A DNA stretch of 64,000 nt from Nitrospirota bacterium (lineage in GTDB: Bacteria > Nitrospirota > UBA9217). Where the stretch lies: the NCBI GenBank assembly GCA_963796285.1, contig CAWCKW010000012.1, positions 1,408,001-1,472,000 on the forward strand, in the 5' to 3' direction. The notes below the pieces were generated by a model, which worked only from the letters and a program-made list of their open reading frames with translations, did no database searches and was not told the origin of the DNA. Position 1 is the first letter of the stretch; the number at the start of each line of letters is the position of its first letter. This document shows, in pieces, positions 39,643-64,000 of the stretch. The translations under genes and the position numbers were made by a program.

Positions 39643-39707
39643 TAGACAATATTCTCTATTCTCATTTATAAGGTTTCTCATTCCGCACGCAAAAATCCGA
39701 AATGGCT

Positions 39708-45676: not shown

Positions 45677-46900
45677 TTAGATAACGATCCCCCCTGCCAC
45701 CGGGTGTCCCGCGTGCTCCAGCACGAACCTGCCCATCTCGGGGATCTCTGCAAAGGCGTCCACAAGGACCGGCCTGTTTAGTTTGATCAGGACATCAGCG
45801 ATCTCCGCTGCCTTGATCTTGCGAGCGTCCTGCTCGATCACTTCGATGGTAGCCGGGTCGAAGCGCCGGTAGATCCTCTCGATAACGCCCTGTGCCTCCT
45901 GCGTGGCGCACCGAAAGGTGAGCGGAATGCCAAGTTCATAGTCTTTATCAATGAGCCAGAAGATGGTGGCGCGGACCGCGTCGGTTACCGCCGGCGTCGG
46001 TTTGTCGACAAGGACATCGCCCCGCTTCACAGGAGGACCTTGAAAGCGAATGCCTATGCAGTGCCCTGCTTCGGCCTGGGGCATGTCATTCTGCATGAAT
46101 TTTTTTACCTCGACAACGATGCCGGCCGCCTTTTGAGGGAAAACATGGACGTTCTGCCCTCTCCTGATTGTTCCCGACTCGACACGTCCTACAACAACGG
46201 ATTGTCCGTCGACGTGATAGATATCCTGCACCGGGAAACGAAGGTCCTTGTCCTCTGCCGTGACAAGGGAGAAGCTGTCCAGCGCCTCCAGGACAGTGGG
46301 GCCGTCGAACCAGGATAACTGTTCGGATCTTGTTGCCACATTCTCCCCCCGCTGCGCGGAAATGGGAAGAACATGGGTGGGCGTGATCTTCAGCTGGCCC
46401 AGCGCGGTCTCTATCTCGCCCTTGATGGCACGGAAGCGGGCTTCGGAATAGGCAACGGCATCCATCTTGTTGACAAGGACGGCTATCTGTTTGAACCCGA
46501 GCAACCCCAGGATGAAGCAGTGACGCAGCGTCTGCTCCCTGATGCCTTCGGTGATGTCGACCAGGAGCAGCGCGGCCTCGGCCTGGGAAGAACCGGTGAT
46601 CATGTTCTTGAGAAACTCCTTATGCCCCGGCGCGTCGATGATGACATACCTTCGCTTGGCCGTGCGGAAGAAGGTATGGGAGATATCGATGGTGATGCCC
46701 CTGTCGCGCTCCTCTTCGAGCTGGTCCATGACATAGGCAAATTCCATCACCTTGCCCTGGGCTTCCGACGCCTGCCGGAGGGCCTCCATCCTGTCCGGCG
46801 GCAGACAGCCGGTATCATAGAACAGCCGGCCGACGAGAGTGCTCTTGCCGTGGTCCACGTGGCCGGTAATGACAATGTGCATGGATCGTTCGTCAGTCAT
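45677..46900 (-). CDS. cysN: Sulfate adenylyltransferase GTPase subunit (no APS-kinase domain)
   Basis: GHVDHGKS, GITID, DAPGH, NKMD; adjacent to cysD. Confidence 0.85.
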   Translation of the reverse strand: MTDERSMHIVITGHVDHGKSTLVGRLFYDTGCLPPDRMEALRQASEAQGKVMEFAYVMDQLEEERDRGITIDISHTFFRTAKRRYVIIDAPGHKEFLKNMITGSSQAEAALLLVDITEGIREQTLRHCFILGLLGFKQIAVLVNKMDAVAYSEARFRAIKGEIETALGQLKITPTHVLPISAQRGENVATRSEQLSWFDGPTVLEALDSFSLVTAEDKDLRFPVQDIYHVDGQSVVVGRVESGTIRRGQNVHVFPQKAAGIVVEVKKFMQNDMPQAEAGHCIGIRFQGPPVKRGDVLVDKPTPAVTDAVRATIFWLIDKDYELGIPLTFRCATQEAQGVIERIYRRFDPATIEVIEQDARKIKAAEIADVLIKLNRPVLVDAFAEIPEMGRFVLEHAGHPVAGGIVI

Positions 46901-46909
46901 TGGTTCTCC

Positions 46910-47713
46910 TTACATGTATCCCAGTGAACGGAGCTTCTGCATGGTGTACACGTCTTCCTTGTCCTGTGCCCGCCCCGCGCGCTCCGAGGTGCTGGACGTT
47001 TCCAGTTCAATGATGATATCGTCCACGCTGGCGGCGTCGGAGTCAATGGGGCTGCAGCACGGCATGCAGCCGATGCTGCGGTACCGCTTCCCCCCCTTGC
47101 TCAGATACAGGTCGACGATGGGGATATTCTCTTGCTTCATGTACTTCCAGATGTCCAGCTCCGTCATGTGCAGCAGGGGGTGCACACGGACGTGATTGTC
47201 CTCGGCAGTTGTCGTCCGGTACTGCTCCCAGAGCTCCGCAGGCTGGTCCTTGTAGTTCCAGGAAAAATTCTCGTCCCGAGGCGAGAAAACGCGCTCCTTT
47301 GCCCGGATGCCGTGCTCATCCCGACGTATGCCGACAAGGACGGCCTGGAACCCTTCCCGTGCGATAATACTCTTGAGCGCGTTCGTTTTGAGTTCGTTGC
47401 AGCAGTCGAGCTTGGCGCCCGTGTTCGGCCCCATGCATTTGGCAATCTGCTCCTCGTTCTTTCCAACGATGAGGTTCAAGCCCCACTGCTTTGCATACTC
47501 CTCCCGAAAGCGATAGATCTCCGGAAACTTGTACGACGTATCTATGTGGATGACCGGGAATGGGACCTTCCCGAAAAAGGCCTTGCGGCACAACCAGAGC
47601 AGCGTGGTCGAGTCCTTGCCGATGGACCAGAGCATGGCCATGTTCTTGAAACGCGCATAGGCTTCTCGTATGATATAGATGCTTCTGTTCTCCAGATCGG
47701 TCAAATGATCCAT
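46910..47713 (-). CDS. cysD: Sulfate adenylyltransferase subunit 2
   Basis: WSIGKDS, GIRRDE..RAKERVFS, RVHPL, YRSIGC, ERAGR. Confidence 0.93.
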   Translation of the reverse strand: MDHLTDLENRSIYIIREAYARFKNMAMLWSIGKDSTTLLWLCRKAFFGKVPFPVIHIDTSYKFPEIYRFREEYAKQWGLNLIVGKNEEQIAKCMGPNTGAKLDCCNELKTNALKSIIAREGFQAVLVGIRRDEHGIRAKERVFSPRDENFSWNYKDQPAELWEQYRTTTAEDNHVRVHPLLHMTELDIWKYMKQENIPIVDLYLSKGGKRYRSIGCMPCCSPIDSDAASVDDIIIELETSSTSERAGRAQDKEDVYTMQKLRSLGYM

Positions 47714-47906
47714 ACGGTATCCTTTCACATCAGGCGATTACGCCTCTACCATCGACAGTACATTGTCAATCTTTTCTATGCTGAAAGACAAGACATTGTC
47801 ACATAAAGAGAGAAATTCAAGATTTAAAATTCAAGATGCAAAACTTGGCGTCCTTTGCGTCTTTGCGAGAGACGCCTTTGACACTGCCTTGTTATTTTTC
47901 CCCCGA

Positions 47907-49272
47907 CTAGGACGCAGTCATCCGCTCAAGCAGAATGCGTGCCAGTCCCTCGATATGCATCCGTTCATTGGGCTGCTGCGCCTCCGGCAGGATGCAGTGG
48001 GCATCTGCGCGGGTATGCATGCCCGCAAAATTGCCTTTGCCGAAGATCTCCTGCTTCTTGAGCGACCCCTTCAGGTCGTATCCGTCATGCGGCAGACAGA
48101 CCAGATCAGGCGCGCGGTCACCCGCCGGTCCCGGATACAGGTCGACGCCATCATAGACGGCCTTGATCACTGAATTTCCTTTTTCGTCTTTAAACGAATT
48201 CCAGCGCTGCTCGTATCCGGGAGAGAACTTCGTTCTTCGCCGATGCCTTCACAGACCCCCGGGGATACTTGTTCTCAAAGTTGACGTAGATCCGCGCGGG
48301 GTCCATGGCAAAGGCCTGCGTCCCCGTGTTGATCTGCTCATAATACTCACGGACGGGATCGAGCGTGAGCAGCCCCTGCTGCTTGAGCCAGGCATTGATA
48401 TATACTTCCTGTTTGAGCACGGTGAACCCGTGGTCCGACAACGTCAGGAAGAGTCCCTTGCCATCCGTGATCTCCATGAACCGCTCATAGAGCCTCCCGA
48501 TGATGCTGTCCATCTGTTGATAAAAGGAGCGGAACACGTCGTAGCGGGGGTGCTTCGCGTCCTGCGCCGCGTCATAGAAAAAATGATGCAGCCGGTCCGT
48601 CTCGGTGATGACGCCGATGAAGAGGTCCCAGGGCTCGTGCGTCAGAAAGTGCTCGAACGCCTCTGCCCGCTTTTCCAGCGCCAGGAACAGTTCCCGAAAG
48701 AACGCGTCCTGCTGGTCCACGGCCTTGTTGGAATCTACGTCGGGAAGATAGCCCATGGAACTCAGATAGGTGTATGCCGTCTCGGGATAGGTGCCTTTCC
48801 GGAAGTCGGGGCACACGAATCCCGCTGTCAGGATCCCGTTCAGAGGCCGCGCCGGATAGGTCTGGGGGATGTTCAGGACAATGGACCGCAGGGGGCTGCG
48901 CAATCTTGTCCGGAACTGTTCGTACAGCGTCGAGGTCTTGTTGTTCACGGTCTGCCCGATCATGTCCCAGATCGTAGGGGCCTGCACACTTCCGGAATTC
49001 GGGAACATAAGCTGGTATGTCCCCGGACGGAGGTCCATGAACCCGTAGATCCCGTGTTCGCCCGGATTTACGCCGGTCATAAAGGACGTCCACGACGTGG
49101 AAGAGACGTCTGGTATGGAAGCGTCCATCTGGTGCAGGCGAAATCCGGCTGACAGGATCTTTTGCACGTTCGGCAGGATCCCTTCCCGCAGATAGTCATT
49201 GAGCAGTGAATAGGGTACACCGTCAAGGCCGATGACACAGCATCTCTGGTTGTTGTTGACCGGTACGCTCAT
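47907..49272 (-). CDS. Alkaline-phosphatase-superfamily enzyme (type I phosphodiesterase-like; frameshift near 48190)
   Basis: IGLDG, WTSFMTGVNPGEHGIYGF, TDRLHH, SDHGF, APDL, GMH. Confidence 0.85.
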
Positions 49273-49310
49273 CTGTTCTCCTAACCCGGACAATCCGGAA
49301 CCAAACCTTT

Positions 49311-49418
49311 TTTGCCACAGAGTACACGGAGGTCACAGAGGGGAAATGAACGGAAAATATTTTAGCTATGAAATTACTTTCAGCCTTTCTCCGCGTGCTT
49401 TGTGACCTTTGTGGCAAA
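49311..49418. repeat. Palindromic element TTTGCCACAGAG...CTTTGTGGCAAA
   Basis: Inverted arms with 9-nt sub-repeats. Confidence 0.65.
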
Positions 49419-49456
49419 ATATTCTTGCCTTTTGAGTAGAATTTGTTCTTAACTTA

Positions 49457-51577
49457 CTACGCCCTCTTCTCGATCCTGCACAGCAGGCCCCTGAGCTGGT
49501 ACGAGCCGAAGGCCGGGTCGTACGGCGGCGCGTTGTTCGTGAGCACGTTCGCATTGGAGTCCCAGATCCCGTGCTCCGGCCCGTGCTTTTCCGGGAACCA
49601 CCAGCCGTGCTCGACATTGATGACGCCCGGCGTCATGTCCTCGGTGACCAGGGCCTTCATCATTATGCTCCCGCGTGGCGATGTTATCCGGACATCATCA
49701 CCCTGGCTGATCCCGTGCTTTGCGGCGGTCTGAGGATGGAGTTCCACCTGGGGATGCGGTCGCTGCTTCCTGAGCGACTGGATCTGCCGGTGCTCGCTGT
49801 GAAAGAACTCGCGCCGTCTGCTGCCCGTGGTGAGCACATAGGGATACTCTTCAGCGAGCTTCGGCGTCGAGACCGGGCTTTCAGGCGGCTCCTTAAAGGT
49901 CGGGAGAGGATCATATCCCATGCGCTCCAGCGACTTGCAATAGAGCTCTACCTTTTTCGACGGCGTCCTGAATCCCTTCTTCTCGAATTTCCGGTATTCG
50001 TGCGGCGGATAGTGGAAGACCTTCTCCTTAAGCTCATCATAGGTGATCCCGAGCGGCTCGAGCTGGTAGTTCATGACGTCCCGCAGGCTTTCCCCGCTGC
50101 CCGGCAGATCGAGCCGTTTTGCCAGCATGTCCATGATCCATTCATCCTGCCTGCACTCGGCGCGCTGGGTCATCTTGCGCTGGGCCATGACCATGTTCTC
50201 CACCACGAGGGGATAGCCGATCACCTGCTCCACCTCGGTTCCGAACGCGGCAGGCAGGACGTAGTCGGCAAGCTCGGCTGAGGGCGTCATGAACAGGTCC
50301 GTCGCCACCAGGAGGTCGAGCTTCTGCAGGCTTTCGTAGACCTCGCGGGAATTCGCCACCGTTGCCAACGGGTTGTTGCCGAAGAGCAGCAGGGCGCGTA
50401 CTCGATAGGGATCGCCGGTCCTCATGGCCTTGAACAGGGCGGGAATGTGGGCTGACGGCATGAAGGCGCGCCACCCGCCGAGGAGTTTAAAGGTCTCGCC
50501 GCCGAGGCGCTTTTTCAACATGCCTTCCGGAAGCTTGTCCTTGAGCGTTGGATAGGCCCGGATGATGTTCATGCCCAGGATGTCGCCGCCGGGGACATCG
50601 ATGTTGCCGGTGATGGCCCGCAGGATCGCCAGCGCCCTTACCGTCTGGAGGGAGTTGACGTTCTGCTCGATGGCAAGCCCCCAGTCGAGGATCGCCGGCT
50701 TGTTCAAGGCGTAGGTGCGGGCAGCCAGGACGATATCCGAAGACTTGACCCCGGTGATCTTCTCGGCCCACTCAGGCGTATAGCCGGCAACGTGTGACTT
50801 CAGTTCATCAAAACCGATGGTCCATTTCTCCACGAACTCCCGGTCATAGATGCTTTCCGTGATAATGACATGGACCATGGCCAGGGCCAGTGCCGCGTCC
50901 GTGCCGGGCCGTACGGGCAGCCACTGCTTGCAGCGTTTGGCAGTCTCGGATTTCCGCGGGTCCACGGCGATCCCGATGCTGCCCGAGTCCAGCGCGCGCT
51001 TGATGGCAATGGAGAGCTCGCCGTCGGGACTGGACACGATGGGGTTATGCCCCCAGAAGAGGATACACTTGGGATGCACCTGGCCGTAGTAGTCGCCCAC
51101 CACGAAACCGCCATAGGTCAGATTGCTCACGGTGATTCGCGGAATGAAGCAGTTGGCCAGACCAGGCTCGTACCAGTTCGGCGTGCCCAGGGCATTGGCA
51201 AACCGCACCACGTGCATGTAGTGGTGCCGTCCCGTGCCCTGGCCCAGGGCGATGGATTCCGGGCCGGTCTCTTTGCGGATCTCGTCCAGGCGGGAGGCGA
51301 TCCCGTCGATCGCCTCTTCCCAGGAGATCCGTTCCCATTCTCCCGCGCCGCGCCGGCCCTTTCTTCGCAGGGGGTGCTCCAGGCGGTCTGGATGGTTCGC
51401 GATCTCCGGCGATGCCAGACCTTTGACGCACATCCATCCCTGTGACATGGGCGAAGCCGTATCGCCTTTGATTTCCGTGACCTTGCCGTTCCTGATCGTA
51501 ACGATCGTCCCGCAACCGCCGTGGCAGATCCGGCATACGCTTCTCAATACCTGTTCCTGCTCATGCTGCTCCGTCAT
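49457..51577 (-). CDS. Mo/W-bis-PGD oxidoreductase, acetylene-hydratase-like subfamily, cytoplasmic
   Basis: CRICHGGC..C [4Fe-4S], HPDRL..PL, ISWEEA, GTPNW..LANC, PGTDAAL, DYVLPAA; no Tat signal. Confidence 0.85.
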   Translation of the reverse strand: MTEQHEQEQVLRSVCRICHGGCGTIVTIRNGKVTEIKGDTASPMSQGWMCVKGLASPEIANHPDRLEHPLRRKGRRGAGEWERISWEEAIDGIASRLDEIRKETGPESIALGQGTGRHHYMHVVRFANALGTPNWYEPGLANCFIPRITVSNLTYGGFVVGDYYGQVHPKCILFWGHNPIVSSPDGELSIAIKRALDSGSIGIAVDPRKSETAKRCKQWLPVRPGTDAALALAMVHVIITESIYDREFVEKWTIGFDELKSHVAGYTPEWAEKITGVKSSDIVLAARTYALNKPAILDWGLAIEQNVNSLQTVRALAILRAITGNIDVPGGDILGMNIIRAYPTLKDKLPEGMLKKRLGGETFKLLGGWRAFMPSAHIPALFKAMRTGDPYRVRALLLFGNNPLATVANSREVYESLQKLDLLVATDLFMTPSAELADYVLPAAFGTEVEQVIGYPLVVENMVMAQRKMTQRAECRQDEWIMDMLAKRLDLPGSGESLRDVMNYQLEPLGITYDELKEKVFHYPPHEYRKFEKKGFRTPSKKVELYCKSLERMGYDPLPTFKEPPESPVSTPKLAEEYPYVLTTGSRRREFFHSEHRQIQSLRKQRPHPQVELHPQTAAKHGISQGDDVRITSPRGSIMMKALVTEDMTPGVINVEHGWWFPEKHGPEHGIWDSNANVLTNNAPPYDPAFGSYQLRGLLCRIEKRA

Positions 51578-52566
51578 TGCACGGTCCTCCCCCGTTCCTG
51601 TCGCAGGACACCCCAGAGGAATCCAAGTCCCAGCGAGGCGGCCCTGATTGAAAGAAAAAAAGGCGAGAGCATGCCGACAACCGGGTCCCTTCTGACCGCA
51701 AGCAGAGCGAAGGGAGCCATGCTCAGACCGTACAGGAAGAGCGTGGCCGCCATCGGATATACGATGACCTTTGGCCAGAGCAGCATCGCCGGCAGCCAGC
51801 CGAGTGCCAGAAACAAAAAGAGGATCTGGAGCTTCAGCGTTTGCGGGGTATAGGAGTCCTTCATCATCTTATCGGGATATCTCCGGTAGACCACCATCCT
51901 CCAGTATCCCCGCCAGAACTTGAGCCGCGCGTAACTCCTGAGGGAATCGGGATGATTGAGATGATAGACCACGGCATCAGGGTTAAAGACCATCTTTCTT
52001 CCCATGCGGGAAAGTTTGTAGGAAAGCTCCGTGTCCTCGTTGTTCGCAACAGGAAAGGATTCATCGAACCCTCCGGCCTGTCTGAAAACGTCCGATCGGT
52101 ATGCAGCGGAGTAGGTGTCCACCATGTCTATTGATGCGGCGCGTTTGAGCAGCTCAAAGCGCTCCTCGAACTCCACCTGGGCGAATCGGGCGATGAGTGC
52201 GCGCTGGTTCGTCCTGTACGCCCCTTTGACCGCCACTACGTCGGGGTCGCCAAAGGGTTTTGTCATCTCAGCGATCCAACCCGTTGAAGGGACGCAGTCC
52301 GCGTCCGTAAAGAGGATGATCTCGCCGCGGGCTTCCCGCGCTCCATGGTTCCGCGCCGTTGCGGGGCCCCGGTTCAACTGGCGAAGGTATTTCACGGGAA
52401 ATGTTCTTACAATTTCGGCCGTGCCATCCCGCGAACCGTCGTCCACCACGATGACCTCATAGTCGGTCGCATCCATAGACTGGCCGGTAAGCGCGCCCAG
52501 ACAATCGCCAATGGTCTTCCCGGCATTGTAGGCCGGAACGATGACGGAATATTTCACGACGCTCAT
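51574..52566 (-). CDS. GT2 glycosyltransferase with C-terminal TMs
   Basis: SVIVPAYN, VDDGS, ARN.G, FTDAD, NEDTE. Confidence 0.9.
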   Translation of the reverse strand: MSVVKYSVIVPAYNAGKTIGDCLGALTGQSMDATDYEVIVVDDGSRDGTAEIVRTFPVKYLRQLNRGPATARNHGAREARGEIILFTDADCVPSTGWIAEMTKPFGDPDVVAVKGAYRTNQRALIARFAQVEFEERFELLKRAASIDMVDTYSAAYRSDVFRQAGGFDESFPVANNEDTELSYKLSRMGRKMVFNPDAVVYHLNHPDSLRSYARLKFWRGYWRMVVYRRYPDKMMKDSYTPQTLKLQILFLFLALGWLPAMLLWPKVIVYPMAATLFLYGLSMAPFALLAVRRDPVVGMLSPFFLSIRAASLGLGFLWGVLRQERGRTVQ

Positions 52567-52576
52567 GTCAGCTTCC

Positions 52577-57292: not shown

Positions 57293-57359
57293 ACCAGCTG
57301 AAATCTCCGAAACCTATTCATGGTAAGCGGCATTGTGGATCGTATGCATGGTCCCTGGT

Positions 57360-58319
57360 TCAGCCCGAGCCTTCGACCTTCTCGGGCTCGATCATTTTCC
57401 CCACCATGAAGCGGTCGAGAAAATGCATCCAGCCCGGAAAGCGGGAAACATAATACTCCATTCTTTCGATGAACTGCCCGGTAACGGCCTTGATGCTCTC
57501 TTCTCCTTTTCCGCTTGAGGTCAAAGGCCGCTCGATCACGATCCGGTACCGTTTCCGCTCACCGGGTACGATGAACATCGGAAGAATAGAAGCCCCTGTT
57601 TTGTCGGCAAGGATGGCCGGGCCAAGAGGGAACAAGACCTTCCGTCCGAAGAAGCTGAAGATCTCGTATCTTCCCACCCGTTTCTCCGTACCGCTTCCAT
57701 CGCCGGTTATCATAATGACCCCGTTGTCGTGCAGCCACCGAAAGGCGGACCGCAGGAAGCCGTCTGCCATGATTATCTCGGCGGGAATCTTTGCCTCATA
57801 GCGCAGGCGAAGTCTGAACGCCACGTTCCTGCCGATCCAGCTGAGCCCCTCATCTGAGGGGAGCCCGATCTGCTTCATCCTGTAGCCGAGCCGTGCAAGC
57901 ACCACCAGCGGCAAATGCACCGGACCGAAGTGACCATGAACAAGAACCACACCCTTTCCACGTTTCAGCGCTTCGTCCAGATGTTCCAGACCATCCATTT
58001 CCACCAGCCGCTCCACGTCTCGAGCGCGGAACTTTGGAAAAACAAAAATCAGAAGGCGGTCCACATAATGGTTTCGGAAGTACTCCCGGACGCCGGCCGC
58101 CATCGATGCCCTTGTCCCCTCTGGTTTATCTTTCTGCAAGAGCGCAAGATTCTTGAGAAGCAGGGTCTTCCCCCCCTTCGAGAGGGAGAAGTGAATATCT
58201 CCAAAAGCGCTGAGCAAGGCAATACCCTGCTTGACAGGAATGATGGTTATTACCCACCTCAGCGGATACCACACAAAGAGGCGAAGTACATCACGAAAAA
58301 TACTTTCACGTACCTGCAT
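57360..58319 (-). CDS. LpxL/lysophospholipid acyltransferase family protein
   Basis: GLEHLDEAL..GKGVVL..HFG, FFGR..FP.GP.LA, P.W. Confidence 0.82.
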   Translation of the reverse strand: MQVRESIFRDVLRLFVWYPLRWVITIIPVKQGIALLSAFGDIHFSLSKGGKTLLLKNLALLQKDKPEGTRASMAAGVREYFRNHYVDRLLIFVFPKFRARDVERLVEMDGLEHLDEALKRGKGVVLVHGHFGPVHLPLVVLARLGYRMKQIGLPSDEGLSWIGRNVAFRLRLRYEAKIPAEIIMADGFLRSAFRWLHDNGVIMITGDGSGTEKRVGRYEIFSFFGRKVLFPLGPAILADKTGASILPMFIVPGERKRYRIVIERPLTSSGKGEESIKAVTGQFIERMEYYVSRFPGWMHFLDRFMVGKMIEPEKVEGSG

Positions 58320-58326
58320 TTTTACC

Positions 58327-58497
58327 TTAAGCCCCTGGCAACTGCTGCACGGTCCTATCGCAAATAATAATAAACTTTATCACGGCACTGAGAAGAGCAT
58401 GGTTCTCTTCTCTGTTGAGGTGTTTCGAAGTGGGACCCTCCTCGAAGGGGGCCGCCGCACTGTCATGATAAAACGCTGAAATTCCCATGACATTCAT
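58327..58497 (-). pseudogene. Truncated carbamoyltransferase N-terminus (56-aa ORF)
   Basis: MNVMGISAFYHDSAAA then unrelated sequence; AAGGAG RBS. Confidence 0.65.
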
Positions 58498-58537
58498 TGT
58501 TCAGGAAACTCCTTGTTCTCGACCTGTCGGAAATCCT

Positions 58538-59791
58538 CTAGTTGAATGCATCGAGTTTCCTCTGGAGATCCGACAGCTTCTTATCTTTATCGCTGACCAC
58601 AAGAAGATCCTTCTGTAAAATATATTGCGATACCAGCAGGGACAACAGATCATTTCCCTTGATGTTCAAGTGCGGATCGTTGCCCCAATACAAGTCTTGA
58701 TCGCGATTCAGCACATGACGGGTCTGGCGGGCCCTTTTCTTGAAAAGAGGCAATACATCGAGATGATCAATGCCTTCTTTATTGAAAAAATCGCGCAGCA
58801 TGTTCTGCGGTTTTTCCCTGTCCATTCCCTCCCAGCTGGTAAGGAAGGGATAGACCTGTTCCCGGTAAGGAATGATCACCACCAGAAGCCGGGACCCATG
58901 CCGGTCCGCAAGCGCTTTGAACGTCCGGAGATTTGAAAAATGAACGGACCAGGCCCGATCCACCCATGGTTTGTCGGAAAACGCGAGGGTGAAAGGGGTT
59001 ATCGCCTTGGTCTTTACGAGGATGTCCTTGACAAACGGCACCCTGAGGAGCATCGAACGCGCAGAGTATTTAAGCATATGGTATACGATCGATTGCCGTT
59101 CGGCCCGCCATTTAAAATTTTTGAGTAAAATGTTGTGCGGGTATTCCTTGACCCCGAATGCCTTATCTTCTTCCAGTGCGGCCTTTTCTTTATCGACAAT
59201 TTTGCCCGTTTCCATGTCCTGGATTTCCCGCGTAACGACCGGATAACCATCAATGACCGTAGCGTTGGGGAACAGGTAGTCATCTTCAAGATCGTTCAGA
59301 AAATATCCGACGATGATAAGTTTCGGCGATCGTTTTGTCCTTGAGATAACATCGGCGGCTTTTAACAGCTCCTGTCTTGTACCGTATCCGCCAACGCCGC
59401 ATTTTAATATCCGTTGCCCCAGAAGGTTCTCCGTCTTCGTTCCCCATTTGTCATTGAACGGCGCAAAGCCAAAGGTAAAACTGTCACCCACCAACAGGGT
59501 AAAATCCTTCTCTCCTGTATAGGGCATGTCAAAACAACCGAGCTCGTTCGACCAGATGCTATATTTTAGTCCGTCGACAAATGCCGAGGAGAGCGGGGCG
59601 TTATCGCGGATATCGTAACCCTTAACCGGATCAGCCTTTAGATAGTTTCGTAAGGGCTCGATCTGTATGGCAGGCAACAGGTTCTTATACGGGGTAAATC
59701 TCAGGACTATTTCCGTCAGAACAAGCATGACAAGAATGCTGGTCAATGCCAGAACAAGGTTTACAGCATATCGCGTTAATGCCCTTTTCAT
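58538..59791 (-). CDS. Membrane-anchored SGNH/GDSL protein (AlgX/AlgJ/PatB-like)
   Basis: N-terminal TM, GDSFTFG, GVGGYG, NDL, DPHLN. Confidence 0.85.
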   Translation of the reverse strand: MKRALTRYAVNLVLALTSILVMLVLTEIVLRFTPYKNLLPAIQIEPLRNYLKADPVKGYDIRDNAPLSSAFVDGLKYSIWSNELGCFDMPYTGEKDFTLLVGDSFTFGFAPFNDKWGTKTENLLGQRILKCGVGGYGTRQELLKAADVISRTKRSPKLIIVGYFLNDLEDDYLFPNATVIDGYPVVTREIQDMETGKIVDKEKAALEEDKAFGVKEYPHNILLKNFKWRAERQSIVYHMLKYSARSMLLRVPFVKDILVKTKAITPFTLAFSDKPWVDRAWSVHFSNLRTFKALADRHGSRLLVVIIPYREQVYPFLTSWEGMDREKPQNMLRDFFNKEGIDHLDVLPLFKKRARQTRHVLNRDQDLYWGNDPHLNIKGNDLLSLLVSQYILQKDLLVVSDKDKKLSDLQRKLDAFN

Positions 59792-61065
59792 TTTAAGTCC
59801 TTCAAGGTGAGTAAAAGATTAAATATCTTTTCAATAAACAGCGTGGAGGGGTTCGTAAAATACTGTGGGTAGAGAAGGGTTTCCCCAGCCTGTAGGGAGC
59901 CGTTCTTGAGAGCAATGTCATAAAGTTTTGTATTCGGTTCGATCCGCATGGAGTTAAATTCAAAGTGCACCCTCTTGCCCATTTGCATCTTTGCTTTGAG
60001 CACGAAATAAATGAGGCGAAAAAACGCCGCTACACTCTGTCCGGGAGGATTTTTGAAAAAATTGTAACTGACCTCGAACCCATCGATACTTTTCAGAAGG
60101 TCATACGTGGCAATGATGTCGCGGGTGTGAATGTTTTTGCCGAGGTTCTGCAATACTTCATCGGAAAACCCGTCAGGAGACAGAATAATATTCCTGCAGC
60201 CGGCGCTCTTGAGCAGCTCAATAAATTCTCTCGTAAGCCCCTTTTCCGTGAACCAGGCAGACCATTTCAGCGTGAGGCCGCGTCGTTTTATCTCGGTACA
60301 GATTTTTACGGCATGGTCCTGCGGCAGGTTGAAGACTGAATCCACAAACGTGAACTGTTCGACCCCCTCTTCCGCCAGCGCTTCAATCTCGTCGACGACC
60401 CTCTGTGCACTTCTGAGCCTCATTTTCTTCCCGTTCAGAAAGCCGTAGATACAGTAAACACATGCAAGGGCGCAGCCCCGCTTTGATTCGATTCCGATGG
60501 CCTCTCTCGTTTTTTGATAGGGTGCGACGGGGATCAATTTTCTATCGGGTAGCGGAGCGGCATCAAGGTCTATTTTATCGTCACTGCCGCCGGTGAAGAC
60601 CACTTCGCCGTTCTTGCGGTAATAAACCGATTTTACCTTATGAGGGGCCGTCGGATCTTCAAGAAGCTTTTGAAAGGACGCCTCCCCCTCAAGCATGACG
60701 CCGATATCGATGCGCGGTTCATCCTTCATGATTTCCGCTGCGAACATCGAAAAGCCGGAACCTCCGATTACGATCGGCGCCCCGGAGCAGTTCTTAATAA
60801 CACCGACGGTCTCTTTTAAAAAAGGATAATAGAATACGACCTTCTTTTTATTTGTGGAGTCGATGTTCCGAAGAGATATCCCGACTATGTCCGGGTGAAA
60901 ATCCTTTAAGATTACGCCTAAATCCTGGAAAGGGTCGGCAGAGAGATTGGAATCAAAGACCCGTATTTCATGGTTTTTCAACGATGAGACGAGGCAAGCC
61001 AAGCCGATCGGATATACCACCGGCTCGTTCCCGCCGAGATATGATTGCACAAGAAGCACTTTCAC
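59788..61065 (-). CDS. B12-binding radical SAM protein (resembles the lipid-biosynthesis-associated SLRNID type)
   Basis: YPIGL, GISLRNID, KRGCALACVYC, FVDSVFN. Confidence 0.85.
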   Translation of the reverse strand: MKVLLVQSYLGGNEPVVYPIGLACLVSSLKNHEIRVFDSNLSADPFQDLGVILKDFHPDIVGISLRNIDSTNKKKVVFYYPFLKETVGVIKNCSGAPIVIGGSGFSMFAAEIMKDEPRIDIGVMLEGEASFQKLLEDPTAPHKVKSVYYRKNGEVVFTGGSDDKIDLDAAPLPDRKLIPVAPYQKTREAIGIESKRGCALACVYCIYGFLNGKKMRLRSAQRVVDEIEALAEEGVEQFTFVDSVFNLPQDHAVKICTEIKRRGLTLKWSAWFTEKGLTREFIELLKSAGCRNIILSPDGFSDEVLQNLGKNIHTRDIIATYDLLKSIDGFEVSYNFFKNPPGQSVAAFFRLIYFVLKAKMQMGKRVHFEFNSMRIEPNTKLYDIALKNGSLQAGETLLYPQYFTNPSTLFIEKIFNLLLTLKDLK

Positions 61066-62558
61066 GATTTGCCCATCATTCGCTTGAATAATTTATACAT
61101 CATTTGTAATGATCGGTACAGCCATTTAAAAAACGGCCTCAAGGGCCTGCTGTTCAAAGTCTCAACAAGCGGGGAACTGACCAGAAACTTGAGCAGCGCA
61201 CTGGGAAACTTCCCCCCCTTGGCAAGCGTCATAAGCAAGTTGAGATAATTCGGCTCGCGCATGGTATAACTCTTGGCGTACACCTCTTTCCGCTCGTCCC
61301 GGACCAGACCGTCCCGCTTCGCCATCTCGTGCAGCTTCGTGCCGGGGTACAGCACCAGGGCGAAGGGCTGGAGCTGGAAGGGCTTGGGGAACTGCGCGAT
61401 CAGCTTCAAACTCTCGATCACGTCCTGCTCCGTTTCGTAGGGGACGTCCAGGATGAAATCATAGCTGGGCGGAAACATCTTGTCTTTATACTTGTTGATG
61501 ATCCGAACGGCCTGCATGACCTTCTCGTTCGACATGGTCTTCCGGTTGAAGAGCTCCTGGATCTTGCAGCTGCCGGTCTGGATGCCCATCTGGACATAGA
61601 TAAGCCCCGCATCGACGAGGAGTTTCATCTTTTCCTCGTTCACCGTCAGGGGGCTCGCCAGGCAGCTGAAAGGGAGGCCGATCTTTTCCTTGTACTCCCG
61701 GCAGAACTCCTCGAGGGCCTTCGTATTGCGGGCAAAGAATGCGTCGTCCGAGATCCAGATGAAGCCCACATAGGGCATGTGCTTCCGGACCCGGATCAGT
61801 TCCTCCATCACATGGGCCGTGGAGCGCCATCGCAGATAGCCTTCGCTGCCGTAGATGTTCTTGATCGCATCGTTGATGCAATAGGTGCATTTGTGAGGGC
61901 AGCCCCGTCCGGTCATGGTCTGGTACCCGATCCGGTGCAGGTAGTGCGATACGGTGCCGCGCTCGAGGAACTGCTTCGTCAGCTCCTCGGTCAGCGGCTG
62001 CACGCGGCCCTCGAACAGGACATGGTGGTCCTCCATGCTGTAGTCCGGCACGGGATAGGCATCAAGGTTAGTGGTGAGGGGGCGCACAGGGTTCTTGATG
62101 ATCCCGCCGTCCTTCTTCAGCCACATGTTCCGGGTTGTGGAATAATCCTGGCCCGCGGCCATCCGGTTTACCAACTCAAGCAGCGCTTCTTCTCCGTCGC
62201 CGACGCAGACCAGGTCGGCATGCTGCAGCGATTCTTCAGGCCTGATGGTGGGATGCACACCGCCCCATATCACGGGGACCGTGAGCTCCCGCTTTATGCG
62301 TTCCGTCACCTGAACGGCGCCGTCGAAGAAATTGGTCATCAGGGTCATGCCGATCAGGTCCGTATCCCTGCACAAGGAAACAACCTCGTCCAGGATATGG
62401 TCATCATACCGCTTGACGCCATAGAGTAAGTTGTCCCCCATTGGATCAGGAATAAAGATCATCCTCGTCTCGTGGCCATTGCGTTTTAAGTACGCGGAAA
62501 TCGTTCTTAGACCAAAAGAGGTTATGTCGGGATAGGGAGATATAAGTGCTATTTTCAT
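61062..62558 (-). CDS. B12-binding radical SAM protein
   Basis: WGGVHPT, GDGE, RGCPHKCTYC, SDDAF, YPGT. Confidence 0.88.
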   Translation of the reverse strand: MKIALISPYPDITSFGLRTISAYLKRNGHETRMIFIPDPMGDNLLYGVKRYDDHILDEVVSLCRDTDLIGMTLMTNFFDGAVQVTERIKRELTVPVIWGGVHPTIRPEESLQHADLVCVGDGEEALLELVNRMAAGQDYSTTRNMWLKKDGGIIKNPVRPLTTNLDAYPVPDYSMEDHHVLFEGRVQPLTEELTKQFLERGTVSHYLHRIGYQTMTGRGCPHKCTYCINDAIKNIYGSEGYLRWRSTAHVMEELIRVRKHMPYVGFIWISDDAFFARNTKALEEFCREYKEKIGLPFSCLASPLTVNEEKMKLLVDAGLIYVQMGIQTGSCKIQELFNRKTMSNEKVMQAVRIINKYKDKMFPPSYDFILDVPYETEQDVIESLKLIAQFPKPFQLQPFALVLYPGTKLHEMAKRDGLVRDERKEVYAKSYTMREPNYLNLLMTLAKGGKFPSALLKFLVSSPLVETLNSRPLRPFFKWLYRSLQMMYKLFKRMMGKS

Positions 62559-62878
62559 CGTGGTGTACCCCTTGCGTGACCATAAGGATTGAACAGTATG
62601 CTGAGACACATATCGCTGGCTGTTCAGGCGAGGAAAAAGACGACAACCTCGACGAAATGTCGCCTTGATAACATCACCGGCAGACTATTTCTTCGGTTGT
62701 GATTCCCGCAATGACCGGTAGTGGAGCTTTTGGCGCAATCGCTTAACCTACCTAAAGTCCGCCCCTTGTGCGAGGCCATGGGCAATCGACTGTTAAAAAA
62801 CTTTCCGCAAAAAATCGTACACCCGATTCCTGTGAAAGGGCGCGCGTTGTGTCTCCAGGGTGTAAGCGTCCGCGGTCA

Positions 62879-62993
62879 TTGAAACTCCCTGCTGCAAGCT
62901 GCACGGCATCTCGATTCTTAAGGTAAGGACATAATCGTATTCGCTCGCTAACCCAGCAGCAAGCCCGGGGAATGCGCTCACCCCAGAATTTAA
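62879..62993. repeat. Small non-autonomous repeat with two CCC.GC.GCAAGC hairpin cores (possible IS200/IS605-end derivative)
   Basis: ccctgctgcaagctgcacgg and cccagcagcaagcccgggg copies about 65 nt apart. Confidence 0.4.
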
Positions 62994-63148
62994 AACAACG
63001 TATACACGAACGGCGCAATCGCGGAGCCAGACGTAAAAACGATCAAGGCGCTTAATAACAATAGAAAGATAATGATGGGTATTAACCACCATTTCTTTCG
63101 TACCTTCAGAAAATCCCAGATCTCGCGGAGTATTGCTGCTTTGCCCAT
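62990..63148 (-). CDS. DUF5989/SxtK-like small membrane protein
   Basis: WDFLKVRKKWWLIPII...SAIAPFVYTLF; AGGAGG RBS. Confidence 0.88.
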   Translation of the reverse strand: MGKAAILREIWDFLKVRKKWWLIPIIIFLLLLSALIVFTSGSAIAPFVYTLF

Positions 63149-63158
63149 GTGCCTCCTC

Positions 63159-63581
63159 CTAAAATTGCCTTTTATATTGTTCCCGGTCGCTGACCGCGTC
63201 ATGCTTCTTCCAGTAGGTAGGGGTCTCCTTCTGGATACGCTCATCCAGCAAATCCTTACCCATTAATTTCAGCAGCCTTCCCCAGGGCGTCATGATCAGG
63301 AAAAATGCAGCCGTCAAGACCAGCCTCGTCATCAGCCAGCCCATCACAAAAGCCAGCGCCATCCACAACCGATAGGGCAGACCTAATGTCATCGGGAAAA
63401 AGATACCCGCCAGAAGAAACACCATGCTCGCGCCGGCAGGCCACATTCCGTTCGGGCTTCCTTTCCAAAACAGAGCCCCCGCCCAGACGCCGAAGAGGGC
63501 GCAAAAGAGCAGGGCGAAACTGCGCAGTGTCTTGGGCGTCACCTCGAGGCCGGTCAGTTCCTTTTTGATCTCCGAAATCAT
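63159..63581 (-). CDS. SxtJ family membrane protein
   Basis: LRSF, LWMALAFVMGW, MTP.G, KDLL, TYW, QF. Confidence 0.85.
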   Translation of the reverse strand: MISEIKKELTGLEVTPKTLRSFALLFCALFGVWAGALFWKGSPNGMWPAGASMVFLLAGIFFPMTLGLPYRLWMALAFVMGWLMTRLVLTAAFFLIMTPWGRLLKLMGKDLLDERIQKETPTYWKKHDAVSDREQYKRQF

Positions 63582-63588
63582 AGGCACC

Positions 63589-64000
63589 TCAATCCAGTTC
63601 ATACTCCTTCTTCCAGTCCACGTCATGCCGCCACTCCGGCTGCTTCGTTTTGTCCAGAACGTACGAGCCCATGACCAGATAGTCCATGTGCGTTCTCATG
63701 AAACATCGATAGGCATCCTGCGGCGTGCAGACGATCGGTTCCCCGCGCACATTGAACGACGTGTTGATAATGACGGGGCACCCCGTTTTCCGATAAAATT
63801 CTTCGAGCGTCGCATGGTAGAGCGGGTTCGTTTCCTTGTGTACCGTCTGGATGCGGGCGGAGTAGTCCACATGCGTAACGGCTGGTATCGTGCTTCTAAT
63901 GACGTTCAACTTGTCAATGCCCCAGAGCCGTTCTTCATCTGCAGTCATCGTTCGCCGCCTGTCTTTTTTCACATCTGCCACCAACAGCATGTACGGGCTT
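63589..64000 (-). CDS. NodU/CmcH/SxtI-family carbamoyltransferase, C-terminal part (5' truncated)
   Basis: SPYMLL, PAVTHVDYSARIQTV, NTSFNVRGEPIVC. Confidence 0.92.
   Translation of the reverse strand, partial: SPYMLLVADVKKDRRRTMTADEERLWGIDKLNVIRSTIPAVTHVDYSARIQTVHKETNPLYHATLEEFYRKTGCPVIINTSFNVRGEPIVCTPQDAYRCFMRTHMDYLVMGSYVLDKTKQPEWRHDVDWKKEYELD

Follow-up and report, generated by a model that had tools for sequence, protein, structure and literature searches.

Gene content of the locus

We analysed a window of 64,000 nucleotides from the genome of an anaerobic Nitrospirota bacterium of wetland or sediment source. Positions 45677..64000 carry 16 co-oriented genes on the minus strand. A preliminary description had listed these genes together with four 4-base start/stop overlaps (61062/61065, 59788/59791, 54058/54061 and 51574/51577); all 16 open reading frames were recovered, 14 of them at Pfam gathering scores, and their coordinates give the overlaps. 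The gene set is the distal half of an island of about 39.7 kb and about 28 genes, which runs on for about 20 kb past the right edge of the window, as had been anticipated.

The window edge cuts a NodU/CmcH-type carbamoyltransferase, whose C-terminal part lies at 63589..64000. The full protein has 608 amino acids (L002:589-2415) and matches Carbam_trans_N with 347 bits and Carbam_trans_C with 250 bits. Next come an SxtJ-family membrane protein (63159..63626; PF19588, 32.4 bits versus 24.4; three predicted helices) and a small DUF5989 membrane protein (62990..63244; PF19451, 85.7 bits, E 2.2e-24, residues 38-84). The PF19451 match is confined to this reading frame, being absent from longer overlapping ones, and the sequence indicates that the true start is probably an inner ATG near 63148.

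The three B12-binding radical SAM (rSAM) genes counted previously are present in the window, and a fourth, of 531 amino acids, lies beyond its edge and brings the cluster total to four. Each of the three window proteins combines B12-binding and Radical_SAM domains with a CxxxCxxC motif. The Pfam-supported rSAM515 (61062..62609) and the fourth enzyme are paralogues with 42% identity. rSAM425 (59788..61065) resembles BzaD and the ‘lipid biosynthesis B12-rSAM’ family, with scores of 283.5 bits for TIGR04385 and 243.1 bits for TIGR04072, both below cut-off. The HpnJ-like rSAM494 (52577..54061) matches TIGR03471 (HpnJ) over its full length with 425.8 bits (E 2e-127), short of the cut-off of 577.6; its best solved relative is AprD4, and the names of the at least 120 protein clusters with ≥65% identity to it are all generic. 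The gene overlaps by 4 bases that of a DUF362 protein fused to a 2x[4Fe-4S] ferredoxin (54058..55245; PF04015, 145.5 bits, plus Fer4 families), which has two CxxCxxC motifs. On its other side is a GT2 glycosyltransferase (51574..52617; PF00535, 115.7 bits), for which about three membrane helices are predicted towards the C-terminus, with hydrophobic segments from residues 260, 289 and 320.

Between the two groups of radical enzymes, two labels of the preliminary description rest on sub-threshold matches. The ‘SGNH’ gene (58538..59791; GDSL_2 and ALGX matches, 20.3 bits) encodes a membrane-anchored SGNH/AlgX-like protein of 417 amino acids that has a hydrophobic helix at its N-terminus and contains a GDS block; the gene occupies a variable slot of the locus, where G+C drops to 0.48. 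The ‘hydrolase’ gene (56432..57292; Abhydrolase_6, 19.7 bits) encodes a putative alpha/beta-fold protein of 286 amino acids; its orthologues (52-55% identity; G001, G004, L009 and L010) directly follow the rSAM425 orthologue in the latter three. An LpxL/PatA-type acyltransferase (copy 1; 57360..58319; PF03279, 74.3 bits) has a His130 and an Asp207 that are invariant in 10 paralogues and orthologues; in the LpxL-like proteins the acid residue of the HX4D/E motif is missing. The heptosyltransferase-like GT9 (55290..56447; PF01075, 126.2 bits) falls under every NCBIfam heptosyltransferase cut-off and has orthologues of 52-56% identity in G002, G003, G005 and G159.

A gene for a cytoplasmic Mo/W-bis-pyranopterin enzyme of 706 amino acids and three Pfam domains (49457..51577) follows, its start sharing 4 bases with the end of GT2. 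Judged by its sequence, the enzyme belongs to the acetylene-hydratase/polysulfide-reductase branch: among solved structures acetylene hydratase ranks first (2e7z, E 2.8e-106, whole length) and polysulfide/thiosulfate reductase second. C15, C18, C22, C50, H19 and C143 are invariant in seven aligned orthologues, and a second alignment of eight agrees. The Cys/Sec-His motif carried by formate dehydrogenases is absent.

The family assignment of the next gene, AP1, to the alkaline-phosphatase superfamily (Phosphodiest/NPP-type; PF01663, 119.4 bits) was upheld, but its extent is corrected to about 47907..49293, since a frameshift near 48190 splits it; alignment with the G003 orthologue switches from frame -3 to frame -1. 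Frameshifts are present in the assembly. No transmembrane segment or signal peptide was predicted for AP1, placing it in the cytoplasm. Gaps of 163 and 178 bp flank it, and the 182-188 bases that separate it from the Mo/W gene are missing in metagenome relatives (joints 49274 to 49457/49463). The spacer to cysD holds a short palindromic repeated element (47844..47879, no strand assigned) with very high depth, many loose contig ends and ‘opposite strands’ joints in three DNA metagenome runs. CysD, the sulfate adenylyltransferase small subunit (46910..47728; NF003587, 355 bits, cut-off 195), is preceded by promoter-like hexamers; the genome also has a Sat-type sulfurylase, on a different contig. 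The CysN-like GTPase of 407 amino acids (45677..46900; GTP_EFTU and related Pfam domains) scores 302.6 bits for TIGR02034 (cut-off 336.1) and has no fused APS kinase. Directly after cysN, a terminator-like hairpin (45587..45606, minus strand; a consensus match only, with an 8-pair stem and five G-C pairs) is likely the end of island transcription. Transcription may also be divided at a gap of about 430 bp after DUF5989 and at the 178-bp gap before cysD, which holds a hairpin.

Upstream of the carbamoyltransferase, beyond the window, we identified genes for SGNH, rSAM531, LpxL copy 2, AP2, Wzx, a secreted 581-aa protein, Wzy, Wzc, Wza, a Zn-dehydrogenase, an acyl-CoA ligase and an initiating sugar-phosphate transferase, which is a nucleotidyltransferase-fused phosphoglycosyl transferase (PGT). 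Wzc exceeds the TIGR01007 cut-off (187.9 versus 108), and Wza, Wzx, Wzy_C and Bac_transf exceed their Pfam cut-offs. The island's gene content, supported by Pfam and NCBIfam matches, is ordered along one strand. Signal peptides are absent from all tailoring enzymes, and the SGNH proteins are predicted to be anchored by their N-terminus.

Island boundaries and recurrence

Conserved flanks bracket the island. On the left are a tRNA-Leu(CAG) (45309..45395, minus strand; ARAGORN) and the adjoining BamD gene (44657-45142; PF13525), and on the other side RlmN and a hydrolase. In the congener G038 the site is empty, with 418 bp separating this tRNA and BamD from the other flank. The flank-to-flank interval, 39.7 kb here, measures 4.3 kb in G080 and 13 kb in G136; in G010 it is filled by 43 kb of unrelated cargo. 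An rSAM515 or Mo/W orthologue was found in only one of eight other genomes of the genus, and four of the seven without them, inspected at the site, have no island-gene homologue there. The cysDN genes are island cargo, as had been proposed: they lie inside the variable interval, cysD is the only PAPS_reduct-family gene of the genome, and it is rare in the taxonomic family (4/64 genomes). We consider it probable that the island is accessory and exchangeable and encodes a Wzx/Wzy-dependent surface polysaccharide of capsule/EPS type.

Sequence comparison indicates that polysaccharide loci of Nitrospirota and Desulfobacterota contain modules of the island in reshuffled arrangements, and this conservation across phyla bears out the earlier proposal of one glycan-building cluster. 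The modules are rSAM515-rSAM425; the DUF362-ferredoxin, HpnJ-like rSAM, membrane GT2 and Mo/W enzyme; and the carbamoyltransferase cassette. rSAM425 is beside rSAM515 in 10 of 11 loci, the DUF362-ferredoxin gene immediately precedes rSAM494 in 8 of 11, and GT2 is downstream of the rSAM494 orthologue in all 11. Gene order across carriers is mosaic, with PGT, acyl-CoA ligase, Wza, Wzc, LpxL-like, rSAM, GT9 and Mo/W genes in one neighbourhood but in shuffled order in G002, G003, G004, G005 and G159. Among 401 genomes sampled from the phylum, 10 bear rSAM515 orthologues, and a Mo/W orthologue accompanies them in all 10, lying in one Nitrospirota family on a separate contig or 2.2 Mb away (G111).

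cysDN is less constant. In G001 and the metagenome locus L071 (74% identity) the Mo/W gene is followed by co-linear AP, CysD and CysN, and the Mo/W gene and CysD are adjacent in L077; cysDN is absent from the clusters of G002, G004, G005, G159 and G282, and also from G253. The related cluster of G002 has a canonical sulfotransferase beside rSAM425, in the slot taken here by SGNH. Genes for Sulfotransfer_1 and Sulfotransfer_3 were not found in this genome; the island has no APS kinase, and the only copy in the genome is 63 kb away. A sulfate module is probably part of the decorating set, and sulfation is a possible outcome in this genome.

Alternative readings

The tailoring genes might instead make a free membrane glycolipid or special lipid head group, for example a cyclitol-type one made as by HpnI/HpnJ or calditol synthase, and merely travel with the export genes. 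This is rather unlikely, even though the full-length match of rSAM494 to HpnJ, its constant membrane-anchored GT2 partner, the likeness of rSAM425 to a lipid-biosynthesis family, the several LpxL/PatA-type acyltransferases with an acyl-CoA ligase in the loci, and an LpxL-like domain fused to a CrtI/amine-oxidase-type flavoprotein in G002 all point that way, as does the contraction of a lipid-linked hexose ring proposed for HpnJ and Cds (PMC13459092). The modules lie among same-strand PGT, Wzx, Wzy, Wzc or Wza genes in all six other fully mapped neighbourhoods (G001-G005, G159), the Mo/W gene is beside Wza in G111, rSAM494 stays under the HpnJ cut-off, and the island has no lipid-backbone genes. 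Identity with a hopanoid locus, named earlier as something that would refute the interpretation, was rejected, as no squalene-hopene cyclase was found in this 96%-complete genome.

Remodelling of LPS, with the LpxL-like and GT9 enzymes acting on Kdo-lipid A and the remainder decorating the core, is very unlikely, and the earlier suggestion of an LPS decoration is not supported. Matches to Lip_A_acyltrans and GT9, and the inclusion of O-antigen ligases in the Wzy_C family, are consistent with it. However, the island acyltransferases score 74-81 bits for PF03279 against 247.8 bits for an LpxL elsewhere in the genome and fall below all LpxL/LpxM equivalog cut-offs, four further GT9 loci exist, and rSAM515/Mo/W orthologues are missing from seven of eight other genomes of the genus. 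Wzx, Wzy, Wzc, Wza and an initiating transferase are in the island itself; it is therefore a Wzx/Wzy-dependent polysaccharide locus rather than one for LPS or hopanoid synthesis.

It is also unlikely that the right and left parts are mere neighbours, with the Mo/W gene, AP1 and cysDN forming an unrelated sulfur/redox operon. The four metagenome loci with the closest Mo/W homologues (L054-L057, 79-80% identity) have no other island-gene homologue alongside, and annotation of L054 and L056 shows unrelated neighbours, namely genes for AhpC and a sigma-54 regulator. The polysulfide/thiosulfate reductase relative, the gaps around AP1, the hexamers before cysD and the lack of cysDN in most related clusters would also fit a separate operon. 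Against this, the Mo/W and GT2 genes overlap, and the Mo/W gene is directly after GT2 in eight loci, the order recurring in G001, G159, G282, L051, L052, L059 and L071. Elsewhere it adjoins Wza, PGT or acyl-CoA ligase genes (G002, G003, G004, G005, G111), and neighbours of this kind are seen in 19 of the 29 metagenome loci at ≥61% identity. Moreover, the Mo/W gene, AP1 and cysDN all lie within the inserted interval. We counted several points against our main reading, the polysaccharide island: the ~430-bp and 178-bp gaps, mosaic order, frameshifts, the missing HX4D/E acid, isolated Mo/W homologues, a branch of about 41 loci at 52-57% identity that is almost never linked to glycan genes (1 of 41), cysDN gaps among carriers, the lack of a Sulfotransfer_1 or Sulfotransfer_3 gene and the distant APS kinase.

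Proposed synthesis and comparison with known systems

For the surface polysaccharide we infer a course of synthesis from the observed gene content and its conservation; the chemistry of every step is a proposal. The PGT would begin a repeat unit on polyprenyl phosphate at the inner membrane face, and GT9 and GT2 would lengthen it. The two PatA/LpxL-type acyltransferases may attach fatty-type acyl groups supplied by the acyl-CoA ligase. The four cytoplasmic cobalamin-type rSAM enzymes could alter unactivated carbons of sugars or acyl chains without O2, the likely reaction being C-methylation; the HpnJ-like enzyme, partner of the membrane GT2, would more likely rearrange a lipid-linked sugar. 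The DUF362-ferredoxin, perhaps the source of electrons, and the Mo/W enzyme would belong to the same sub-module, the latter perhaps performing an oxygen-independent hydration, hydroxylation or dehydroxylation. Carbamoyl groups would come from the cassette of carbamoyltransferase, SxtJ, DUF5989 and anchored SGNH protein, and activated sulfate for a sulfur-bearing decoration from CysDN with the AP-family enzyme. Wzx would flip the unit, Wzy polymerise it and Wzc/Wza export the polymer. The carbamoylation, fatty-type acylation and radical tailoring expected from the preliminary description are encoded in the island.

Our searches found no described equivalent of the island. Its decorating set, comprising four B12 radical enzymes, a W/Mo enzyme and fatty-acyl, carbamoyl and probably sulfate modules, fits no studied pathway. 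The machinery for initiation, flipping, polymerisation and export is the island's own, as in capsule/EPS-type loci.

Gene content and boundaries of the island

The 16 minus-strand genes listed in the preliminary description are present between 45677 and 64000, and the four 4-base start/stop overlaps it reported are borne out by the ORF coordinates (gene calls are simple longest ORFs). Pfam and NCBIfam agree with nearly all of its labels. Confirmed on the minus strand are a Lip_A_acyltrans protein, a GT9, a DUF362 protein fused to a two-cluster ferredoxin (DUF362-ferredoxin), a GT2, a three-domain molybdopterin oxidoreductase (Mo/W enzyme, 49457-51577), a Phosphodiest protein of the alkaline-phosphatase (AP) superfamily (AP1), CysD and a CysN-like GTPase. 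Two labels, ‘SGNH’ (58538-59791) and ‘hydrolase’ (56432-57292), have only sub-threshold matches. The window edge cuts the minus-strand carbamoyltransferase gene, leaving the C-terminal 136 residues of a 608-aa protein. Three B12-binding radical SAM genes, rSAM515, rSAM425 and rSAM494 (named by length in aa), lie inside the window as described, each with a CxxxCxxC motif; for the cluster as a whole that count falls short, since a fourth (rSAM531) lies beyond the right edge. The expectation that the cluster continues past this edge proved correct, with 13 further genes on the same strand: the full 608-aa carbamoyltransferase, an anchored SGNH protein and rSAM531 (531 aa); a second LpxL-like protein, a second AP-family enzyme (AP2), Wzx and a secreted 581-aa protein without family; a Wzy_C protein, the tyrosine autokinase Wzc and Wza; and a Zn-dehydrogenase, an acyl-CoA ligase and a 586-aa nucleotidyltransferase-hexapeptide-Bac_transf fusion, the initiating sugar-phosphate transferase (PGT). 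A 101-aa ORF between the last two has no family match, appears non-coding and was discarded.

The PGT (L003:1105-2865; L002 and L003 are stretches of the same genome beyond the edge) matches PF02397 (Bac_transf) with 228 bits and carries the nucleotidyltransferase domain in fusion. Wzx (PF01943, 72 bits) has 14 hydrophobic segments, Wza matches PF02563 (77.3 bits) and has SLBB in addition, and Wzc passes TIGR01007 (187.9 bits, cut-off 108). The Wzy_C protein, with 9 hydrophobic segments, passes PF04932 (41.1 bits, cut-off 31.7), a match that does not distinguish polymerase from ligase. Judging from these family matches, the locus is predicted to hold the full machinery for a Wzx/Wzy-dependent, Wza/Wzc-exported polysaccharide. 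The Zn-dehydrogenase by Wza (L002:15998-17158) passes the model for the scyllo-inosose 3-dehydrogenase IolM (487 against 450 bits) and has orthologues at 54-56% identity in the comparison genomes G003 and G159; it represents a cyclitol enzyme within a polysaccharide locus.

Conserved genes of the genus flank the site: RlmN and a 295-aa hydrolase lie at one end, tRNA-Leu and BamD at the other. The interval between them is 39.7 kb in the source genome (G000, in which the window is C12:1408001-1472000), where it is the island itself, mapped at C12:1453309-1492836; it is 418 bp in G038 (tRNA only), 4.3 kb in G080 (no island-protein homologue), 13 kb in G136 (no island-gene orthologue and one weak 24% DUF362-like match) and 43 kb in G010 (G010:C3:232714-276123; no homologue of any island protein; homology maps by tblastn, E 1e-8 or better). 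Because these intervals differ between genomes, we conclude that the genes from cysN through the PGT are inserted cargo. The BamD-to-hydrolase site is a hot spot for large accessory loci, as illustrated by the different 43-kb cargo of G010. No direct repeats of 12 or more bases were found between the two island borders, and integrase-type attachment sites are therefore not seen; such borders are more easily reconciled with replacement through flank recombination, the mode seen at O-antigen and capsule loci, than with an integrase.

Orthologues of rSAM515 (E 1e-150 or better) were detected in 10 of 401 sampled genomes of the phylum, G000 counted, and those of the Mo/W enzyme (E 1e-180 or better) in 14, including all 10 with rSAM515, a co-occurrence that is not a statistical test because the carriers are related to one another. 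One of the eight other genomes of the genus has rSAM515/Mo orthologues.

Several features of the sequence bear on its recent history and assembly. G+C content drops to 0.48 at 58000-60000, against 0.55-0.61 around it, over the SGNH417 gene and the end of the rSAM425 gene; this low value, together with the presence of other genes in the SGNH417 slot of related loci, suggests a recently swapped cassette. A frameshift near 48190 interrupts the AP1 gene, and from the two-frame alignment of the G003 orthologue we place the true gene at about 47907-49293. The genes for IleRS, a class A PBP and anthranilate synthase component I also look split or truncated (L003:9199-11574, 11849-14123; window 33695-34486), and in view of these further split genes (IleRS, PBP) frameshift-type assembly errors are probable. 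Contigs of relatives from an RNA library (X20) and two DNA metagenome runs (X1, X2) contain just 7-13 other letters between 49274 and 49457/49463, which indicates that the 163-bp spacer between the Mo/W and AP1 genes (49294-49456) is an insertion peculiar to G000. At a short palindrome in the AP1-cysD spacer (47844-47879), three DNA metagenome runs (X1, X2, X4) show ‘opposite strands’ joints along with numerous loose contig ends and a very high summed depth; the element behaves like a dispersed repeat or hairpin common to many organisms. Left of the island, on the minus strand at 36807-41708, are genes for a 385-aa RuBisCO-large-chain-like protein, a 519-aa double SDR, two transketolase halves and a GalT/HIT-like protein, which may constitute a RuBisCO-like-protein sugar pathway.

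Recurrence of gene modules in other lineages

A scan of species-representative genomes with rSAM515 yielded eight true loci, in MAGs labelled Nitrospirota, delta proteobacterium, Desulfarculales, Syntrophobacteraceae and Smithella, and was extended by adding further Nitrospirota genomes; metagenome contigs were scanned with the Mo/W enzyme alignment. The co-conservation that the preliminary description proposed to check is found at the level of modules, which recur across lineages, though in shuffled order, and remain in loci with PGT, Wza, Wzc and Wzx. In module (a), rSAM515 and then rSAM425 are adjacent in 10 of 11 loci (the exception is G159), frequently accompanied by rSAM531, AP2 and two to four LpxL-like genes. 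In module (b), GT2 follows rSAM494 in all 11 loci, within 50 bp in nine, DUF362-ferredoxin precedes rSAM494 in eight, and the Mo/W gene lies directly after GT2 in G000, G001, G159, G282, L051, L052, L059 and L071 (G, genomes; L, other loci, including metagenome contigs). Module (c) places the acyl-CoA ligase, dehydrogenase and Mo/W genes by PGT/Wza (G002, G004, G005, L058, L066, L068). Module (d) consists of SGNH, carbamoyltransferase, SxtJ and DUF5989 genes (G000, G001, G004 and L009, with L010 ending after DUF5989) and differs in position between G000 and its congener G001. Module (e), Mo/W followed by AP1-CysD-CysN, occurs in G000, G001 and L071 (Mo/W enzyme 74% identical); Mo/W and CysD genes are adjacent in L077, and in G003 GT2 is followed by an SDR, a PAPS_reduct-family gene and AP1. 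GT9, DUF362-ferredoxin, the HpnJ-like rSAM494, the membrane GT2 and the His-variant Mo/W enzyme are a conserved module, after which AP-family and CysDN genes follow in some lineages.

The association of the Mo/W gene with island genes is frequent and not universal. Among the matches listed, 19 of 29 metagenome Mo/W loci with at least 61% identity have an island-gene neighbour, two have a weak one and eight have none. Four of these eight (L054-L057, Mo/W identity 79-80%) have flanks of 0.6-8 kb on each side, and in L054 and L056 the neighbours encode AhpC, sigma-54 regulators and Ig-domain proteins. The Mo/W gene and rSAM515 of one Nitrospirota family are on different contigs, or 2.2 Mb apart in G111, a single-contig genome that may come from an isolate; there the Mo/W gene belongs to a small operon with GT2, Wza and an EF-hand protein. 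At 52-57% identity, island-type neighbours occur in 1 of 41 loci (L103), among the matches listed. The split contigs, the neighbourless L054-L057 and the 52-57% branch run against a strict link between the Mo/W enzyme and the island.

Contigs from the X20 metatranscriptome library match at least eight island genes with 90-96% identity, and two cross the cysN/cysD and DUF362/rSAM494 junctions; being assembled from relatives and possibly from DNA, they are not evidence of co-transcription. Promoter and terminator scans gave results not above shuffled expectation.

Predicted functions of the tailoring enzymes

All four radical SAM proteins contain B12-binding and Radical_SAM domains and the CxxxCxxC motif, and are predicted from these domains to be class B, cobalamin-type enzymes. 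rSAM531 is 42% identical to rSAM515, for which an ESM Atlas search returned only generic B12/radical SAM clusters. rSAM494 matches the HpnJ model TIGR03471 over its full length with a score below the cut-off (425.8 against 577.6 bits), and its best solved relative is the sugar-modifying enzyme AprD4. Its close family is large, with 65% identity or more to at least 120 protein clusters from Nitrospirota, Planctomycetota and others, all with generic names only. A 2026 review presents ring contraction of a lipid-linked hexose to a carbocycle as the proposed reaction of HpnJ and Cds (PMC13459092). We did not find a squalene-hopene cyclase (PF13243) in the 96.2%-complete genome; given this and the sub-cut-off HpnJ score, we conclude that this is not a hopanoid locus, a match that the preliminary description had considered. 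About three C-terminal hydrophobic helices are predicted in GT2. DUF362 and the N-terminal domain of LarA share a Pfam clan, according to the available text of one study (PMC11770544). Searching solved-structure sequences with DUF362-ferredoxin returned ferredoxin-domain matches only, an AlphaFold2 model from a 7-row alignment (mean pLDDT 47.8) was too poor for a fold search, and a predicted complex with rSAM494, run without controls, scored under the mark.

The Mo/W enzyme has no predicted signal peptide. Its best solved relatives are, in order, acetylene hydratase (2e7z, full length, E 2.8e-106), polysulfide/thiosulfate reductase and FdhF. Cys143 aligns with the tungsten ligand Cys141 of acetylene hydratase and C15/C18/C22/C50 with its [4Fe-4S] cluster cysteines; all five are invariant in seven aligned orthologues (eight in another alignment). 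His19, found in all eight orthologues, lies in an invariant CRxCHGGC motif at the position of acetylene hydratase Asp13, a residue described as essential and subfamily-specific in PMC12096430. Catechol dehydroxylases, which adjoin acetylene hydratase, are the other characterised enzymes of the branch, as far as the available text of PMC7028382 goes. A formate dehydrogenase feeding electrons to the radical SAM enzymes was considered and rejected, as Cys143-Phe144 stands where 1aa6 and 7qv7 have Sec/Cys-His; the score against the formate dehydrogenase alpha model TIGR01591 is 328.7, below 666. Among the matches listed, 563 of 646 pattern-matching metagenome stretches encode a relative. A large sister branch at 52-57% identity (L078-L120) has the same CRxCHGGC and HGWWFP motifs, stands alone and has varied contexts (amino-acid genes, transporters, cyanase). 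This branch constitutes a separate, uncharacterised family of His-variant acetylene-hydratase-like enzymes.

CysD passes NF003587 (355 against 195 bits), and CysN, at 302.6 bits, falls narrowly under the TIGR02034 cut-off of 336.1 and has a resemblance to EF-1-alpha models as well. The genome has no PAPS_reduct-family gene other than CysD, which is found in 4 of 64 genomes of the family, and a Sat-type sulfurylase is encoded on another contig; we therefore regard cysDN as cargo and not as housekeeping genes. Sulfotransfer_1 and Sulfotransfer_3 (PF00685, PF13469) were not found in the genome, and its only APS kinase is 63 kb away (C12:1535145). In G002, a 201-aa sulfotransferase gene lies right after rSAM425. 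A solved-structure sequence search with AP2 returned nothing.

In the LpxL-like proteins an HFG motif contains an invariant His, and an Asp-Gly pair is likewise invariant; the residue five past the His is not acidic, so the acid of HX4(D/E) is missing, and scores are far below all LpxL/LpxM model cut-offs. Among NCBIfam models, copy 1 is best matched by that for phosphatidylinositol mannoside acyltransferase, which would fit O-acylation of sugars with fatty-type chains. G002 (L005:2127-4433) encodes a 768-aa fusion of an LpxL-like protein with an amine-oxidase/CrtI-type flavoprotein, a hint that lipid-like chains are handled. The carbamoylation trio stands in a row: the carbamoyltransferase (Carbam_trans_N 347 bits, Carbam_trans_C 250 bits), SxtJ (minus strand, Pfam, 32.4 bits) and DUF5989 (62990-63244, minus strand; PF19451, E 2.2e-24, 85.7 bits), the last not carried by the longer overlapping ORFs. 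We take DUF5989 to correspond to SxtK, and the motifs in the SGNH protein are presumably of AlgX type.

Proposed pathway, alternatives and relation to known systems

The analysis establishes gene content, predicted topology, module conservation and island status. We consider it probable that the tailoring genes belong to a Wzx/Wzy-dependent surface-polysaccharide island, and hold each specific chemical step with much less confidence. PGT, GT9 and GT2 would build a repeat unit on polyprenyl phosphate, which the LpxL/PatA-type enzymes may acylate with acyl-CoA from the island ligase. The four cobalamin-type radical SAM enzymes would modify unactivated carbons, with C-methylation a likely outcome, and rSAM494 may act on the GT2 product in an HpnJ/Cds-like rearrangement, with DUF362-ferredoxin as the probable electron carrier. 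The Mo/W enzyme would probably catalyse an oxygen-independent hydration, hydroxylation or dehydroxylation. The SxtI/J/K-like cassette and its anchored SGNH partner are predicted to carbamoylate the unit, sulfation is possible through CysDN and AP1, and the finished unit would be flipped, polymerised and exported.

Three other explanations were weighed. The preliminary description read the cluster as building a glycolipid or LPS decoration. The LPS reading is not supported: the island LpxL copies score 74-81 bits against 247.8 for a canonical-scoring LpxL elsewhere in the genome, and the island has its own PGT, Wzx, Wzy, Wzc and Wza. As that LpxL and four other GT9 loci lie elsewhere, the locus is not the main LPS pathway, and we regard an LPS remodelling locus as very unlikely. 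The acyltransferases and the HpnJ-like rSAM494 with its membrane GT2 also bring to mind a free glycolipid or lipid head group; with the same assembly and export genes on the island, we consider such a product unlikely. That an unrelated Mo-AP-cysDN operon is merely adjacent to a glycan locus is improbable: the separated and neighbourless Mo/W genes speak for it, and the recurrence of the Mo/W gene directly after GT2, or by PGT/Wza, speaks against it.

Within the surface-polysaccharide reading, we tentatively put forward a more specific version, which taken jointly is itself rather unlikely to hold in full. The conserved module would be a new oxygen-independent route to a rearranged (carbocyclic or branched) lipid-carrier sugar, sulfur-bearing in some lineages and exported in a fatty-acylated polysaccharide. 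The metal enzyme would hydrate or dehydroxylate a carbohydrate or lipid, and the AP enzyme would use APS directly, with no canonical sulfotransferase. By analogy to AlgI/J/X acetylation, the carbamoyltransferase-SxtJ-DUF5989-SGNH set might carbamoylate the polymer outside the cytoplasm.

The statement that no characterised pathway has this combination agrees with the literature searched. Searches with few subscription journals in their coverage found nothing joining B12-radical SAM enzymes with a lipid-A acyltransferase, or acetylene hydratase with polysaccharide biosynthesis; nothing related was found for SxtJ, carbamoyltransferase and polysaccharide, and the phrase ‘cobalamin-dependent radical SAM’ did not occur together with Wzx among the matches listed. 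The word ‘lipopolysaccharide’ is absent from the 2026 review on radical SAM enzymes that modify lipids, and no comparable system appears among its section headings (PMC13459092).

The chemistry of the surface polysaccharides of uncultured peat, wetland and sediment anaerobes is almost unknown, and the island indicates that such bacteria exchange cassettes of enzymes able to functionalise unactivated carbons without oxygen. It ties two large unstudied families, the HpnJ-like radical SAM and the His-variant acetylene-hydratase-like Mo/W enzymes, to glycan synthesis, and gives DUF362-ferredoxin a testable partner. Its enzymes are candidates for new biomarkers or biocatalysts, as well as for sugar and lipid reactions of a new kind: C-methylation, rearrangement of rings, carbamoylation and an unusual form of sulfation.

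Parts of the island resemble known systems. As in the HpnI-HpnJ pathway to bacteriohopanetetrol cyclitol ether, rSAM494, a full-length HpnJ match, has a membrane-anchored GT2 partner. The island departs from HpnI-HpnK-HpnJ in that rSAM494 scores under the HpnJ cut-off, the HpnI model gives no match to GT2 and an HpnK-like deacetylase is not recognised; unlike both that system and Cds, the context is a polysaccharide locus to which DUF362-ferredoxin and the Mo/W enzyme are added. The latter resembles the acetylene hydratase of Pelobacter acetylenicus (2e7z) in its monomeric, cytoplasmic nature, in the N-terminal Cys motif for a [4Fe-4S] cluster and in a Cys that aligns with the tungsten ligand Cys141, and differs in the invariant His that replaces Asp13 and in its glycan-synthesis context. 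PatA of mycobacteria and CruD of green sulfur bacteria are sugar-acylating members of the LpxL family; the island proteins share their PF03279 fold and the conserved His of the HFG motif, but score below all curated cut-offs and occur in two to four copies per locus. As in SxtI/SxtJ/SxtK and NodU/NolO/CmcH systems, SxtJ-family and DUF5989 membrane proteins come after a carbamoyltransferase with both of its domains. Unlike in Sxt systems, this trio joins a membrane-anchored SGNH/AlgX-like protein as a four-gene cassette (module (d)), which changes place inside polysaccharide loci and has no toxin pathway genes. Characterised Wzx/Wzy loci with Wza/Wzc export include those for the E. coli group 1 capsule and colanic acid, as well as Psl-type loci. 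Like such capsule and exopolysaccharide loci, the island carries an initiating transferase, Wzx, Wzy_C, Wzc and Wza on one strand between conserved flanks, with other cargo at the site in congeners. Its tailoring set is not known from characterised loci of this kind: besides four cobalamin-type radical SAM enzymes and CysDN, it includes DUF362-ferredoxin, the acetylene-hydratase-like Mo/W enzyme, a pair of LpxL/PatA-type acyltransferases and a pair of cytoplasmic AP-family enzymes. In its framework the island is a common Wzx/Wzy locus occupying a variable site; the tailoring set is out of the ordinary.
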